In this document: piece by piece, positions 36,122 to 42,095 of the stretch
Numbering within the stretch: position 1 is the first letter of the stretch
Layout: each line of letters begins with the position of its first letter
Assembly (NCBI GenBank): GCA_965203355.1
Contig: OZ241889.1
Span: 1,344,001 to 1,408,000 of the forward strand
From: Candidatus Latescibacterota bacterium
Lineage (GTDB): Bacteria; Latescibacterota; UBA2968; UBA8231
DNA length: 64,000 nucleotides
Reading direction: 5' to 3'
Translations under genes and position numbers: made by a program
The notes under the pieces: generated by a model
Seen by the model: the letters and a program-made list of their open reading frames with translations, nothing else
Told to the model about the DNA's origin: nothing
Database searches by the model: none

Positions 36122-36877
36122 TCATACGGCAGTTTCCAAGTAGCGTGCCCAATTGGCCGCGGCCTCCTCGGCCGTGAACCCGATGAGTTCAGCTAGTTTG
36201 GCGGCGACGGCTACCACCCTCGCCGGATGGCCGGCGACCCCGCCGATGGGCACGGGGGCGTCCGTCTCCAACAGCAGCAACTCGCGTTCAATCTCGGCGA
36301 CCACGGCTTGGGTCTGCGGATCGCACAGGACGGATGGACCGACGGAGACGTAGATCCGCTCCGCACGGCAGATCCGCACGAGTTTTTTGGATTGGGTGAA
36401 CCAGTGAAGCTGGGCGTTGAGTTGGGTGCGGCGGCGAAATGCTACGGCCTGCTCCAAGGTCTGCCGCTGAGCGCGGCGCGAGTGCAGGTTGATCGGCTTG
36501 CCGCACTGTGCCGCCAGATCGAGTTGCTGGGCGAGGACATCCTGCTGCCGGGCCTGCTGCTCCGGGCTGACCGCCCATTTGTAGTCGAGGCCGACTTCGC
36601 CGAGGACATCGGCCTCGGGCAGATGCGCCGCCAGATAGGCGAGCCCTTCGGCGAGTTCGGTGTCCGCAGCTTGGGTGACCCATGCTGGATGTAAGCCCAG
36701 CCCGGCCAGCACTTGGCCCGGGTGCCGCTGCTTGAGCGCGAGTACCGCACGCATGGAACTGGCACTTTCGCTGACGGCGACGACCTGCTCCACCCCGGCT
36801 TGAGCGGCGGCCGCGAGTACGGCATCGGCATCGGCATCGGCAAACTGGTCGAGATGACAGTGGCTGTCGACGAGCAT
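36122..36877 (-). CDS. tatD: TatD-family hydrolase
   Basis: DSHCHL, GLHP, GEVGLDY, HSR, HWF, LETDAP. Confidence 0.93.
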   Translation of the reverse strand: MLVDSHCHLDQFADADADAVLAAAAQAGVEQVVAVSESASSMRAVLALKQRHPGQVLAGLGLHPAWVTQAADTELAEGLAYLAAHLPEADVLGEVGLDYKWAVSPEQQARQQDVLAQQLDLAAQCGKPINLHSRRAQRQTLEQAVAFRRRTQLNAQLHWFTQSKKLVRICRAERIYVSVGPSVLCDPQTQAVVAEIERELLLLETDAPVPIGGVAGHPARVVAVAAKLAELIGFTAEEAAANWARYLETAV

Positions 36878-37825
36878 CTAGACCAGGCCTGCGGTCTCGT
36901 CGCAGCCGAGCATCAAGTTGAGGCACTGCACGGCATTGCCCGACGCTCCTTTGCCGAGATTGTCGAGCCGCCCGACCAGCACCAATCCCTGCTTTGGATC
37001 GCCCCAGACCGATAGCTCGACGAAATTGGTATGGCTCAATCCGGTTAGGTCGAGGAATTTGTCGTCGCGCAGCACCGCGTCTTGAGGCGCGACCACCTGT
37101 ACAAAGGGACAGTCCGCGTAGTATGCACGCCAGACTTCGCACACGGCTGCGCGATCGACGTGGGGACGGGCGAAAAATTCCGCGGGCAGTGGCGTGCTGA
37201 CGACCATGCCGCAGAACGAATGATCGACGGACGGCACAAAGAGCGGCTGCTTTTCGCACCCGCTGAATTGCCAGATCTCGGGCAAGTGCTTGTGTGCGCT
37301 GTCGAGGCCGTACAGGCAGAAAGGCTTGTGATCGCCCTCGCCTTCGTATTCGGCGATCATGGACCGCCCGCCGCCGGAATAGCCGGACACCGCGTTGATG
37401 GTCAGCGGCGCGGTGGGCCGGAGCAGCCCCTGCGCGATGAGGGGCCGCACGGCGAGGATGAAACCAACGGGATAACAACCGCAGTTGGCGACTTGCTGGG
37501 CGCGGCGAATTTGCTCTTTGTGCGCAGGTGAAATCTCGGGCAGTCCATAGACCCATTTGGCGTGGACCCGACGCGCCGTGCTTGTGTCGATGACCTTGGT
37601 CCGCGGATTTTCGAGCAAGGCGAGGGCATCGGCGGCTGCGTCGTCGGGCAGGCAGAGGACGCACAAGTCCGCGCGATTGAGGAACTCGGCGCGTACGCCC
37701 GGGTCTCGGCGATGCTCCGGTGGAATGAGCAACACCTCCACATCCTCGCGCCCGGCTAGCATCTGGCGAATGCGCAGCCCGGTCGTCCCTTCTTGGCCGT
37801 CTATGTAAATCGCCGGCTTTTTCAT
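36878..37825 (-). CDS. argC: N-acetyl-gamma-glutamyl-phosphate reductase (type 2)
   Basis: IDGQEGTTGL, ANCGCY, AVSGYSGGG, LDNLGKGASG.AVQ. Confidence 0.96.
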   Translation of the reverse strand: MKKPAIYIDGQEGTTGLRIRQMLAGREDVEVLLIPPEHRRDPGVRAEFLNRADLCVLCLPDDAAADALALLENPRTKVIDTSTARRVHAKWVYGLPEISPAHKEQIRRAQQVANCGCYPVGFILAVRPLIAQGLLRPTAPLTINAVSGYSGGGRSMIAEYEGEGDHKPFCLYGLDSAHKHLPEIWQFSGCEKQPLFVPSVDHSFCGMVVSTPLPAEFFARPHVDRAAVCEVWRAYYADCPFVQVVAPQDAVLRDDKFLDLTGLSHTNFVELSVWGDPKQGLVLVGRLDNLGKGASGNAVQCLNLMLGCDETAGLV

Positions 37826-37831
37826 GGGAAC

Positions 37832-38083
37832 TTATTTTGGCCCCTTGGCGATGGTGCCGGTGAGCAACCGCGGAAACCCGGCCAACAGCGGAATCGCCGC
37901 TGCAATAAGCGACTGCACGGGTAGCATTGCTTGGTCGATAAAAAAGAAGAAGTAGAGAAAGGTCAAAACGCCGCATAGGGCGAATAGCTTGACGATGCCG
38001 GGCCCTTGGCGCGGGATGTCGCGGATTACAGCGGGCAGGGTCTGCTCTTCGTCAAAGCAGGGAATCTGCACGATTAGCTTCAT
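37832..38083 (-). pseudogene. Internally deleted GT2 glycosyltransferase
   Basis: GT2 start MKLIVQIPCFDEEQTLP fused directly to a membrane C-terminus (FLYFFF...VQSLIAAA); catalytic core absent. Confidence 0.75.
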
Positions 38084-38971
38084 TCACCCCCAGCTTTCCT
38101 GCCGGATTTGCTTTTTGTCCAGCCCGTGCTCCTGCAAGAGCGCGACCATGTTTTCGACGAAGCGCGGCTCGGGGGTCTCGCCTTTGGCCCTAGCGGCCTT
38201 GCGCTCGTGCGGCGTGATGCCCGGACCGCAGCTATAGGCCAGTACGCTGGAGGGATCCGGGGCGATCTCGCGCAAAAGTTCCCCAGCGATGCGTCCTTGG
38301 CGGGCACCGCGAATGCCAGCGGGGTCTTCGCGGGTGATGCAGTGAATCACGTCGAGTCGATCGGGATACTGCGCCCGCAGCACCTCGAGTTCCTCAAAGT
38401 AAATGATGTCGCCGCGCGTCTTGTTGCTAAACAGCAAGGTGTGCCTAAGCGAATCGCCGCGGTGCAGACTTTCCTTGATCAGGCTTCGGTTGGGCACGAT
38501 GCCGCTGCCAGCGCACACGTGGAGGATGTGGTCGGTGCGCTCGCAGACATCGGCGGGAAAGGTGTACGCCCCGGTAAAACCGCTGATGACTAGCCGTCGG
38601 CCCTCGTGGATGTAGTACGTCAACAGCGGCGACAAAAGCGGTGGGTACGGGGTCTGGCCGCTCTCGTAGCGTTCTTCTTTGATCGTAATGGCGAGGTGCT
38701 CTTCGTGCGGCGCAGAGGCCATGGAATAGGCCCGCGGCTTTTCCCGCTGCCCCTTTTGATCTTCTAGATAGGCGGTGAAATGCGCTAGCTCGCCGAACTG
38801 ATGGGGATCAATGGTGCAGAAGTGCCCGGCCTCGTATTCGATTGGATCGTCGCCAGCGGACATAAAGAGCGTGGTGGTGTCTGGGGTGTCGCGGCGCACG
38901 TGGACGACCTCCACCTCCAGCGCCCGGACCCGACGCCTTGGCGTGCGCGTTGTTTGCTCTGAGGTGTTCAT
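38084..38971 (-). CDS. FNR-like FAD/NAD(P)-binding oxidoreductase
   Basis: RAYSMAS, GFTGAY, CAGSGIVP, YSCGPG, ends ESWG; no ferredoxin domain. Confidence 0.9.
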   Translation of the reverse strand: MNTSEQTTRTPRRRVRALEVEVVHVRRDTPDTTTLFMSAGDDPIEYEAGHFCTIDPHQFGELAHFTAYLEDQKGQREKPRAYSMASAPHEEHLAITIKEERYESGQTPYPPLLSPLLTYYIHEGRRLVISGFTGAYTFPADVCERTDHILHVCAGSGIVPNRSLIKESLHRGDSLRHTLLFSNKTRGDIIYFEELEVLRAQYPDRLDVIHCITREDPAGIRGARQGRIAGELLREIAPDPSSVLAYSCGPGITPHERKAARAKGETPEPRFVENMVALLQEHGLDKKQIRQESWG

Positions 38972-38972
38972 A

Positions 38973-39239
38973 CTAGCGCTTCCTAGCCAAATGCGCTTTC
39001 ATCTTTTCGATCAGGGCCTCGTCGTCTGCCGACGAGGCCACCATCTCCGCGAATGCTGCGGCTGTCAACTCCACTTCCTCCAGGAAGTGCTGGTCGGCCG
39101 GTCAGGGAAATACGTAGTCGCCGATGCGTTGCTGTTGGTAGGCCCGCGCTTTGTCGGCGATTCGCGCCAGCCAGGGAATGTCGCCGATGATCATTCCTCG
39201 GGCCCGGGGCTTGAAGTCGAGCGTGTTCCACTCGCTCAT
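38973..39239 (-). CDS. DUF5069-family protein with in-frame TGA (predicted selenocysteine, codon 46), 88 aa
   Basis: PR...WLARIADKARA...GDYVFP-TGA-PADQHFLE...DEALI; GGAGG RBS; readthrough stop lies 1 nt before the next ATG. Confidence 0.8.
39072..39089 (-). promoter_or_regulatory. Putative SECIS hairpin
   Basis: CACUUCC-UGGA-GGAAGUG starting 12 nt 3' of the UGA at 39102-39104. Confidence 0.65.
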
Positions 39240-40291
39240 AAGGTACCTCCGCGTGGTGATAGACAAAATTGCAACCGGCTTCTGAACTCGGCTGCACTTG
39301 GGTCTGTGCTCAAGCCCTGAGCCAACATGGCCGCGCATTGCCGCAGCCGCGCATAGGGCCTTTTCCAGCGTTGGCGCAAGGCCAGCGCGTGCGGCCCGCC
39401 ATTGAGCGCTGCACACAACAGGGCCGCGCTGTTTAAGAGAAAAAAGATGCGGTGATAATCGAGCGCCCGCGCACCGTCGCCGCGCCCGGATACTTCGGCG
39501 TATAAACGCGCTGCGGGCGCGTCCAGCAGCGAGCCCATGCGCCCATCCTGCCGCCCGCTGCCCATGCTAGTAGTATACTGCGTCAAACGCCTTTCCGTCC
39601 AGTCCCAACCCATTTTGGCAAATTCGAGAAAGTAAACGCGCGTGCCCTCCGGCCCGACGATTGCATTGCGCGCATTGTAATCTAGGCTGCCCAGCGAAAC
39701 GGGGCGCGTCGCCAGCCAATCGTGCATGGATTCGAGCAGCGGTGGCAGCCCAACGTCTAGCGGGCGGCACAACTGTTCGATGCCAGCGTGCGCCCGGACT
39801 CCCGCTTCGTCCCAGGCGGCGTCCAGCGCGGCGCGGTTGGCACTGGGCACTATCCTCGGTTCTAGCTGGGCGGCGCGTTGGGCGCACGCGCGCTCAATGG
39901 CGCACAAACCGCGTATGGCTTGTAGCGTCGCCGTGCGGTCTCCATCCTGAATAGCGTCGTCAAGGGTGCGATCACCGACCCATTGCAAGAAGATGCAGTG
40001 GGCATCTGAGTCTATGCCGAGGACCGTGGGCACTAGACATCCGTCTGCGCGCAAGAAGCCGAGCACGTCCCGCTCGACTTCCAACAGGTCGTAAGCCGTG
40101 CCCTGCGTCAGCCTGCCGAAGAGCTGATGCTTAACCACGACCTTGCGGCCGTCCGCGTCTTCGACGCGCCAGACCCCTCGGGCGAGCGGAGTGATAGCGC
40201 GGACGGGCGGATACCCCGTACGCACATAGGCCGCGGCGGCCTGATCCCCGTTCACCGGCCACGGATCCTCCGCGTGGTCGGCGCGGCTCAT
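39236..40291 (-). CDS. APH/kinase-like phosphotransferase (divergent)
   Basis: VVVK, E..VL..L...VP.VL, LQWVGD; LDYNARN (DxxxxN) and FLEF in place of IDF. Confidence 0.65.
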   Translation of the reverse strand: MSRADHAEDPWPVNGDQAAAAYVRTGYPPVRAITPLARGVWRVEDADGRKVVVKHQLFGRLTQGTAYDLLEVERDVLGFLRADGCLVPTVLGIDSDAHCIFLQWVGDRTLDDAIQDGDRTATLQAIRGLCAIERACAQRAAQLEPRIVPSANRAALDAAWDEAGVRAHAGIEQLCRPLDVGLPPLLESMHDWLATRPVSLGSLDYNARNAIVGPEGTRVYFLEFAKMGWDWTERRLTQYTTSMGSGRQDGRMGSLLDAPAARLYAEVSGRGDGARALDYHRIFFLLNSAALLCAALNGGPHALALRQRWKRPYARLRQCAAMLAQGLSTDPSAAEFRSRLQFCLSPRGGTL

Positions 40292-40665
40292 GGTTGGCTG
40301 AAGACGATGATTTGCGCGACGACTTTGCCGGCTTGGTTGTTGAAGGCTGGATTTTCGTTCATGGCCAAGAAGAGCACCCCGGCGCGGTCGGCAATAAAGT
40401 CGTAGCGGCTGCCCACGGCAAAGGTCGGCCCGTCGTCGCCGATGCGGGCGATGAGCGCACCAACGTTAGCCGCTGGCAGGAGGTACCCCTCGTCAGCCGG
40501 TAAGTTGTACAAGCCATCGGCTCCACACCAAGCGATTTGGTTGCGCAGGTCCGGCGACCAAGTTTCCTCGGCGTCGATGACGACCCGCTGGCCGCTCTCC
40601 AGCCGGATCAAGCTGTCTTGCCATTGCGGACTAGGCCGCACCGTACGCATAATTGTTACAGCCAC
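40288..40665 (-). CDS. LecA/PA-IL-like lectin-fold protein
   Basis: WQDS.I.L..G...W...G.DG...GALIARIG...F.VG...G.L.LAMN. Confidence 0.65.
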   Translation of the reverse strand: MAVTIMRTVRPSPQWQDSLIRLESGQRVVIDAEETWSPDLRNQIAWCGADGLYNLPADEGYLLPAANVGALIARIGDDGPTFAVGSRYDFIADRAGVLFLAMNENPAFNNQAGKVVAQIIVFSQP

Positions 40666-40712
40666 AGCACCTTCTCGCTATCTATTTAGTTAAAGCGCGT
40701 ATTGCGATTTCA

Positions 40713-42095
40713 ATGGCGCTAAAAAAATCCTCTGGCCCCAAAGAGTCAAGCGCGGCTCTGCACCAGCGGCGCATTGCCCTCCTCGGCCTCGGCGTGGAAA
40801 ACCGCGCATTGGCTCGTTTTTTTTGGGCGCACCAGATTCCCTTTGCCGTGTGCGACGTGCGCGATCCGGCCACTCCGGTGGAGGGCGTGCAACAGTGGCG
40901 TATTGGCGAACGCTATCTCGACGATCTGACCGACTTCGACCTGCTGTTCCGCACGCCGGGCCTGCCGACGCTGGACCCGCGTCTGGGTGCGGCGCGGCGT
41001 TGCGGCGTTGAAGTATCGAGCCAGACGCGCCTCTTTCTGCAACGGTGTCCGGCCCCCGTGCTCGGCATTACCGGCACCAAGGGCAAGGGGACCACGACCG
41101 CGCTGCTACACGCCTTGCTGGCAACCGATCCGTCGGCGCGGGTGTTTAGCGGCGGCAACCTGGGCCGACCGCCGCTCGAATTCATCGACGAGCTGGAGCC
41201 GACTGACCGAGTGGTCCTAGAGCTGTCCAGCTTTCAATTGCAGGACCTCGACCAAAGTCCCCACATCGCCGTGGTGCTCTCCATCACCGAGGATCACCTC
41301 GACTATCACGCCGACCGCGCCGAGTACGTCGATGCTAAAAAAGCCATCTGCCGATACCAAACGCCCGGCGATATGCTCATTGTCAATCGGGACTGTCCTA
41401 CGGCTCGGACCTTTGTCGAGGAGAGTACCGCCACCCTTTGGTCCTTTAGCACAACGGCTCCGAGCATTCCGGGCGCGTGGATCGCCGATGGCCAGTTGTG
41501 GGCTTGCTGCCCGGAGGAACAGCCCCTCGCCGTTTGTCCGGTGGACGACATTCCTTTGCGGGGACAACACAATTGGAGCAACGTCGCTGCCGCGGTGGCT
41601 GGTGCCTTGGCATTTGGTGCGCCAGCGTCCGGTTTCGCCGCGGCCATTCGCTCCTTTGCCGGCCTTCCCCACCGCCTCGAATACGTTGCTGAGTGCGAGG
41701 GCGTTACCTATTACAATGACTCACTGGCCACGACGGTCGATGCTGCTTGTGCCGCCATCCGCGCCTTCGACGCACCTCTACTGTTGATTGCGGGCGGTGC
41801 TTCAAAGGGGGCCGACTTTAGCGCCTTAGGTACTGCTGTTGCCGCGGCCAAGGTCCGCGCCGTGCTGCTCATTGGCCAAGAGGCCCCGCGCATTGCCGCG
41901 GCCGCCCGGCAAGCGGGCGCGATCGTCCAGTGCTGCCGCGACCTGGCGCAAGCCTTGGACCGGGCCCGCGCCCTAGCGCAAGCGGGCGACGTGGTGCTGC
42001 TTTCGCCGGCCTGCGCCAGCTTCGATCAGTTTGCCAGTTACGCCGAGCGCGGCGACCTATTTAAGCGGCTGGTCCGCCCCCCGAGCGTTGTATGA
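40713..42095 (+). CDS. murD: UDP-N-acetylmuramoyl-L-alanine--D-glutamate ligase
   Basis: GITGTKGKGTT, ELSSFQL, DHLDYH, HRLE, YYNDS.AT, LSPACASFDQF..Y.ERG. Confidence 0.97.
   Translation: MALKKSSGPKESSAALHQRRIALLGLGVENRALARFFWAHQIPFAVCDVRDPATPVEGVQQWRIGERYLDDLTDFDLLFRTPGLPTLDPRLGAARRCGVEVSSQTRLFLQRCPAPVLGITGTKGKGTTTALLHALLATDPSARVFSGGNLGRPPLEFIDELEPTDRVVLELSSFQLQDLDQSPHIAVVLSITEDHLDYHADRAEYVDAKKAICRYQTPGDMLIVNRDCPTARTFVEESTATLWSFSTTAPSIPGAWIADGQLWACCPEEQPLAVCPVDDIPLRGQHNWSNVAAAVAGALAFGAPASGFAAAIRSFAGLPHRLEYVAECEGVTYYNDSLATTVDAACAAIRAFDAPLLLIAGGASKGADFSALGTAVAAAKVRAVLLIGQEAPRIAAAARQAGAIVQCCRDLAQALDRARALAQAGDVVLLSPACASFDQFASYAERGDLFKRLVRPPSVV

Follow-up and report, generated by a model that had tools for sequence, protein, structure and literature searches.

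Bacterial selenoprotein genes of the Escherichia coli fdhF type carry an in-frame UGA for selenocysteine (Sec) and, immediately 3' of it within the coding region, a hairpin that is called a SECIS element (for Sec insertion sequence). A published model of the bacterial SECIS (bSECIS) element describes an apical loop of 3-9 nt with a G among its first two nucleotides, an upper stem of 4-16 bp, a distance of 16-37 nt from the UGA to the loop and a minimum free energy (MFE) of at most -7.5 kcal/mol (PMC13188914, Fig. 2). The same 2026 review, which describes itself as the most comprehensive inventory and counts 119 prokaryotic selenoprotein families or subfamilies, assigns the majority of characterised selenoproteins to thioredoxin-fold proteins with a UxxC or CxxU motif (PMC13188914). 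Here we analyse a stretch of 64,000 nt from a Candidatus Latescibacterota bacterium (contig OZ241889.1, positions 1,344,001 to 1,408,000), hereafter called the window, in which a short gene of the DUF5069 family has the fdhF-type arrangement of an in-frame TGA, at codon 46, and a coding-region hairpin directly behind it. Comparison with related sequences indicates that this TGA very probably stands for Sec and that the gene is a genuine selenoprotein gene.

The locus and its reading frame

The argument evolves around four features, all on the minus strand:

38973..39239, minus strand: candidate selenoprotein gene for a short form of DUF5069, with 88 codons and a TAG stop (translated with TGA=U; PF16798, 48.3 bits)
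39102..39104, minus strand: in-frame TGA, codon 46, read as probable Sec (aligned with a near-invariant Cys of the homologues; TGA in 67 of 80 loci)
39072..39089, minus strand: SECIS-type hairpin with the stem CACUUCC/GGAAGUG and the apical loop UGGA at 39082..39079 (from sequence, single-sequence fold and comparison)
39246..39250, minus strand: ribosome-binding site GGAGG, separated by 6 nt from the ATG (39239..39237; from sequence)

When the frame 39239..38973 is translated with TGA=U, it yields an 88-residue product that starts with MSEWNTLDF, runs through GDYVFPUPADQHFLEE and ends with LARKR. The TGA at 39104..39102 is the sole in-frame TGA; the product contains no Cys, and Sec46 is its only Cys-type residue. 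Standard open reading frame (ORF) calling ends the frame at GDYVFP*. At its 5' end the ATG overlaps the stop codon of an upstream 351-aa ORF (TGA, 39238..39236) as ATGA, and at its 3' end the TAG (38975..38973) is separated by 1 nt from the next ORF, whose ATG is at 38971. The initial annotation had proposed this readthrough product with U46, together with the ribosome-binding site, both gene junctions and a perfect 7-bp hairpin beginning 12 nt after the UGA. All of these are present where it had placed them, the hairpin at 39089..39072 (CACUUCC-UGGA-GGAAGUG), and the product is exactly as quoted; the minus strand, which had been left unstated, can now be added.

In public data, the genes of the Sec forms turned out to be called wrongly, in three different ways. 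The call P0063 is cut at the TGA (49 aa), P0061 carries a W, and P0062, which is 96% identical to the N-terminus of the window protein, changes frame after its first 30 residues. Because the Sec forms are systematically mis-called in this manner (cut at 45-49 aa, given a Trp or moved into another frame), both the gene and the continuity of the operon are invisible to standard annotation. In an RNA-library run (X15), a 2283-nt contig spans positions 38000-39564 at about 90% identity; this contig is only an indication that the operon of a relative is present in the library and is not proof of transcription. Run X17 yielded no contig here, and none of the differences listed for run X5 falls on 39102-39104.

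Family membership and fold

The readthrough product scored 48.3 bits against the Pfam family DUF5069 (PF16798), above the cut-off of 27, with residues 11-86 aligned on profile positions 4-79 of 133. The family assignment made earlier therefore holds and, because the match covers only these profile positions, the product is regarded as a short form of DUF5069. A scan against NCBIfam, selenoprotein models included, returned no family at E <= 0.01. In a large protein collection, 61 homologues of mostly 87-95 aa were found, and the column of codon 46 is a near-invariant Cys in them, within the motif RIGDY[IV][YF]PCPADQ. The profile of these homologues matches one solved structure, 3omd (E 1.3e-11), an 'uncharacterized protein' of Leptospirillum rubarum, with GEYTYNCPLDQ aligned to GDYVFPUPADQ and thus a Cys at the Sec46 column. 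The placement of the TGA at a conserved Cys column, which had been put forward in the initial annotation, is therefore borne out by the homologues and by 3omd. Overall, the family motif around Sec46 reads G-D/E-Y-x-Y/F-P-[C/U]-P/G/A-x-D.

To describe the protein at the structural level, an AlphaFold model was built on the homologue alignment (predicted local distance difference test 83.5; predicted template modelling score 0.73). It shows an all-helical fold with a short hairpin, the helices covering residues 24-35, 47-55, 60-68 and 73-87. Foldseek superposed the model on 3omd with a probability of 1.00, a query template modelling score (TMq) of 0.78 and a root mean square deviation of 1.0 over 73 columns, and found no structure other than 3omd at E <= 0.001. 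According to the model, the 88-aa product shares the fold of 3omd. In the same model, residue 46 directly precedes the second helix (47-55). The N-terminal end of a helix is a typical placement of nucleophilic Cys residues.

Apart from the short form, we made several observations on the wider family. A long-form (133-position) paralogue from another genome of the same phylum (L081, G105:C322:26700-27350; 109.7 bits on PF16798) has a TGA at the same Cys column (codon 238-240, ...DYVYN-U-SLD...), and the hairpin predicted behind this TGA is longer and differs from that of the short form. DUF5069 is strongly expanded in the phylum of genome G001, in which 132 of 167 genomes match, mostly with 4-8 members per genome. 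Tandem DUF5069 proteins, triple (431 aa) and double (284 aa), also occur and contain no other domain (L083, 860-2155, minus strand; L084, 362-1216, plus strand). Domain fusions as a clue to function were not encountered among the longer DUF5069 proteins examined, which were two- or threefold tandem repeats only.

TGA and Cys forms among the relatives

A pattern scan over one genome per prokaryote species was carried out to collect relatives of the gene, and the best 80 of 173 were kept as loci (numbered with L in the following); one of the two scan patterns ended in Cys. At the Cys column, 67 loci and the window have TGA, eight have TGC and four TGT, and one further locus, L033, is a Cys form seen only as protein. 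This amounts to 67 TGA and 13 Cys forms among the best 80, a biased frequency because the matches were ranked by their likeness to a Sec-form query. Homologues with TGA and with TGC or TGT at this codon, the two forms of a Sec/Cys pair, are both at hand.

The TGA forms are labelled as metagenome-assembled genomes of Latescibacterota, Gemmatimonadota, Planctomycetota and Poribacteria, and their identity to the window protein ranges from 95% down to about 55%. Several of them (L013, L016, L019, L025 and others) bear the labels Alphaproteobacteria or Gemmatimonadetes, are 91-92% identical to Latescibacterota loci, fall inside the Latescibacterota clade and have the same synteny; such labels probably reflect noise from binning or taxonomic naming and not transfer. 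The Sec form was found in the Latescibacterota-type and the Poribacteria genomes retrieved, many of them apparently associated with sponges.

In a maximum likelihood tree of 79 rows and 82 columns with many unresolved forks, the Sec/Cys label needs at least two changes on the best tree, and the well-supported branches alone force at least one. The Sec forms make up three groups, one of 40 that includes the window, one of five (L053-L058) and one of 22 Poribacteria. Because the hairpin core is common to all of them, a single origin of the Sec form is suggested, which would have been followed by reversion to Cys or by transfer between phyla, a history on which the tree is not decisive.

The hairpin behind the TGA

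An alignment of the 54 nt starting at the TGA (67 sequences, 57 of them distinct) was folded with RNAalifold, giving a 6-bp stem with the loop UGGA. For the 7-bp structure, standard pairs fill 93.7% of the cells, compared to 77.6% after shuffling of the columns (a level as high as the observed one is attained in 0 of 500 shuffles) and to 36-72% with pairing partners displaced by 1-3 columns. Among the distinct sequences, 35 have CG at pair 18-31 and 22 have GC, and at pair 17-32 all of UA, GU, AU and GC occur. Judging by the alignment, these two stem pairs have undergone compensatory changes, and in total two to three pairs vary on both sides.

The Cys forms provide a second view on the same region. 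The loop UGGA is present in 68 of 68 TGA forms, the window included, and in one of 12 Cys forms, and all six core pairs are found in 64 of the 68 TGA forms and in none of the 12 Cys forms. The mean energy of the 24-nt core is -8.56 kcal/mol in the TGA forms and -4.44 kcal/mol in the Cys forms. At the codon level, the synonymous sites of TTC CTG GAG GAA hardly change among the TGA forms but are variable in the Cys forms. As we read the alignments, this contrast with the Cys forms is a stronger argument for the hairpin than the covariation. The hairpin noticed in the window is thus shared with other genomes, is tied to the TGA forms by its distribution, and shows compensatory changes. As a whole, the Sec form can be described by one nearly invariant putative SECIS hairpin, UUCCUGGAGGAA. 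With its UGGA loop, a stem of 6-7 bp, a spacing of 19 nt and an MFE below -7.5 kcal/mol, it agrees with all constraints of the published bSECIS model.

Alternative readings of codon 46

Three other explanations of the in-frame TGA were considered. The first is that the UGA is read through with a residue other than Sec, either because a reassigned code gives it the meaning Trp or Gly or because a near-cognate residue or Cys is inserted. The W in the public call P0061 indicates that some pipeline did use a code with a sense TGA. In the window, TGA is nevertheless the ordinary stop of six of the eight neighbouring genes, the overlapping upstream one included, and it ends 14 of the 35 long open frames. 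Because TGA ends six of the eight surrounding genes, a TGA-sense code is excluded; moreover, the residue aligned with codon 46 is Cys and not Trp or Gly, and the hairpin that fits the bSECIS model belongs to the TGA forms and is lacking in the Cys forms. We then searched five complete or near-complete genomes of relatives for the Sec machinery, two with close Sec forms (L002, L004), one with the Poribacteria Sec form (L060) and two with Cys forms (L039, L048). In all five, selA (518-584 bits), selB (326-346 bits), selD (325-376 bits) and tRNA-Sec (70-78 bits) were found above the curated cut-offs, which means that the machinery of these relatives is complete. We consider a readthrough without Sec very unlikely on these grounds. 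As a separate observation, the selD of each of the five genomes (G001-G005) has one in-frame TGA; therefore, selenophosphate synthetase in its well-known Sec form is also present in these lineages.

The second explanation is that the TGA is a true stop, which would make the gene a 45-aa truncated remnant or pseudogene followed by 42 codons of untranslated spacer. This is how ORF calling (GDYVFP*) and the public callers, with their 49-aa product for the relative P0063, treat the gene. The part behind the TGA does not behave like a spacer, since 36 codons 3' of it are open in 67 of the 67 TGA forms with enough sequence. The ratio of non-synonymous to synonymous substitution rates (dN/dS) of this part is 0.08-0.83 in 20 pairs with the window (mostly 0.1-0.4, and at most 0.4 in 18 of the 20) and resembles that of the 35 codons before the TGA. 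In addition, the codons downstream align with the C-terminal half of the Cys homologues and of 3omd, and even lineages whose protein shares just 55-60% identity with that of the window have retained the TGA. By these patterns of substitution, the codons downstream of the TGA are judged to be coding and under purifying selection, and a true stop is likewise considered very unlikely.

The last one, an assembly or sequencing error with TGC, TGT or TGG as the true codon, is a concern that any single metagenomic contig raises by default. It found no support and can be regarded as negligible, given that TGA occurs in 67 independently assembled loci and that positions 38452-39435 are reproduced, with 0 differences, by a 984-nt contig from another study.

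Several results nevertheless weigh against Sec at codon 46 or against the role that we propose for it. Regarding the hairpin, the compensatory changes mostly separate a few clades and may go back to few events, while the shuffle control ignores relatedness; behind the contrast between TGA and Cys forms stand only 12 Cys sequences; and because the hairpin encodes F-L-E-E, its conservation is partly conservation at the protein level. The 60 nt after the TGA of the window fold with an MFE of -18.8 kcal/mol, which is no better than in shuffled sequences (z -0.79, 40 of 200 at least as low). Further values were obtained for L060 of the Poribacteria (z +0.21), for L055 (-0.85) and for L081 (-1.34), none of them significant. 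Because these single-sequence energies are non-significant, they are not used as evidence, and the case made here is comparative and not thermodynamic. A search of Rfam with positions 38950-39260 at E <= 10 returned three chance-level hits and no SECIS family, and over the whole window there was no match at gathering scores. A tRNA search of the 64-kb window found none. A crude screen of the window for other genes with an in-frame TGA (TGA flanked by coding sequence with a high GC content at third codon positions) gave 15 candidates; inspected by eye, none but that at 39104 is flanked by protein-like sequence. Furthermore, the genomic context is a different one in the Poribacteria, as read in L060, and in L053-L058. 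Finally, the redox or nucleophilic role of Sec46 is inferred from the Sec/Cys exchange.

Altogether, the Sec-for-Cys substitution proposed at the outset is supported by the pairing of TGA and Cys forms, by the TGA-linked hairpin and by the selection on the downstream codons, and Sec at codon 46 is the reading that we follow below.

Gene neighbourhood

The DUF5069 gene is surrounded by three genes on the same strand:

39236..40291, minus strand: upstream 351-aa gene, kinase-like (APH-like, as a lead only; from the ORF list and Atlas neighbour clusters)
40288..40665, minus strand: 125-aa gene, weakly PA-IL-like, first of a conserved trio (18.1 bits on Pfam PA-IL, for which the cut-off is 22.5)
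38084..38971, minus strand: downstream gene for a 295-aa flavoprotein, a reductase of ferredoxin-NADP reductase type (Pfam NAD_binding_1, 52.3 bits)

Neither Pfam nor NCBIfam has a family that matches the 351-aa protein, and its kinase-like label comes from the nearest Atlas clusters, which include clusters with PF01636 (APH) in 10-100% of their members. In 51 of the 80 loci, its gene is the one upstream of DUF5069. The 125-aa gene occupies the same place in 49 of the 80, at 69-96% identity compared to 32-86% for the kinase-like neighbour over the same loci, and it always heads the three-gene cluster. Together, the two genes precede the DUF5069 gene in about 50 of the 80 loci, be it a Sec or a Cys form. 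On the other side, the flavoprotein reductase follows the DUF5069 gene in 39 of the 80 loci; the partial NCBIfam matches of the 295-aa protein to PaaE, NqrF and FNR-type reductases all stay below the cut-offs.

The context in the Poribacteria was also considered as a clue to function and rejected, the neighbours UPF0182, PheA and QueG being housekeeping genes and uninformative. Outside the cluster, the flanks of the window locus are argC-like (36878-37825, minus strand), TatD-like (36122-36877, minus strand) and murD-like (40653-42095, plus strand), as named from their translations with no family scan, and this arrangement is retained in most Latescibacterota-type loci.

Proposed mechanism and significance

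Based on these comparisons, UGA46 would be decoded as Sec by SelB carrying Sec-tRNA(Sec). SelB would be recruited by the coding-region hairpin, with its stem of 6-7 bp and its UGGA loop placed 19 nt after the UGA. As such, the decoding mechanism is the standard bacterial one and of a kind already known. Within the protein, Sec46 may be a lone selenol with a nucleophilic or redox function, exerted on a partner or together with one. Because the product has no resolving Cys, this partner is expected to be intermolecular, and it could be found in the co-transcribed flavoprotein reductase and in the pair of kinase-like and 125-aa proteins. Putting all these elements together, we lean towards the view that DUF5069 is an unrecognised Sec family with a fold unrelated to thioredoxin, in which the lone Sec would be the active site of a new redox or selenium-handling protein that works with the kinase-like protein, the 125-aa protein and often the reductase.

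The exchange of Sec and Cys is among the few purely computational routes to a functional residue of an uncharacterised family, and in the present case it points to Cys/Sec46. DUF5069 has a crystal structure (3omd) without a function and is widespread, as its presence in the large majority of the genomes of one phylum indicates. If the assignment is confirmed, a non-thioredoxin-fold family with a single Sec would join the roughly 119 prokaryotic selenoprotein families, and the use of selenium would be shown in symbiont lineages that are difficult to culture.

Comparison with known selenoproteins

The initial annotation did not know DUF5069 as a described selenoprotein family. This agrees with the full-text literature searches, in which no paper on DUF5069 or PF16798 was found, and with Table 1 of PMC13188914, in which the family is absent by name and accession; supplements are outside this scope. 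Searches for literature on the selenoproteins of Poribacteria, Latescibacteria and sponge symbionts, and on 3omd, gave nothing relevant. In the part of the deep-Sep paper (PMC12013277) that was available, nine new families are reported and DUF5069 is not among them, and the main text of BSepDB (PMC13326102), as far as available, does not contain any 'DUF' term.

The nearest precedents in kind are GOS_A, GOS_B and GOS_C, which, according to the available part of PMC2398784, are likewise small, without an assigned function and derived from Sec/Cys pairs in marine data; for GOS_A, the same part gives 2 Sec sequences and 155 Cys homologues. The models of GOS_B (NF041374) and GOS_C (NF045500), numbered as in the table of PMC13188914, do not match the window protein. 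Thus, we consider it probable that DUF5069 is an unlisted selenoprotein family, in a comparison for which Dataset S2 of PMC2398784, with the GOS_A sequences, and the Tables S2 of both PMC13326102 and PMC12013277 may also be relevant.

Regarding the hairpin, the window gene resembles genes of the bSECIS type, with a 4-nt loop that has a G at the second position followed by another G, a stem of 6-7 bp and a 19-nt spacing; it differs from them by the missing match to an Rfam SECIS family. Regarding the protein, the motif and the superposable fold are those of 3omd and of Pfam DUF5069, with a score above the Pfam cut-off. It differs from 3omd and from most members of the family by a predicted Sec where they carry a Cys, and from the full PF16798 by its length of 88 aa, which lacks the C-terminal third. 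Compared to the thioredoxin-fold UxxC/CxxU proteins, it has no second Cys and no match to a thioredoxin-like structure. What it would share with them is a Sec in place of a conserved Cys at the N-terminal end of a helix and, as is the case for nearly all selenoproteins, it has homologues with Cys.
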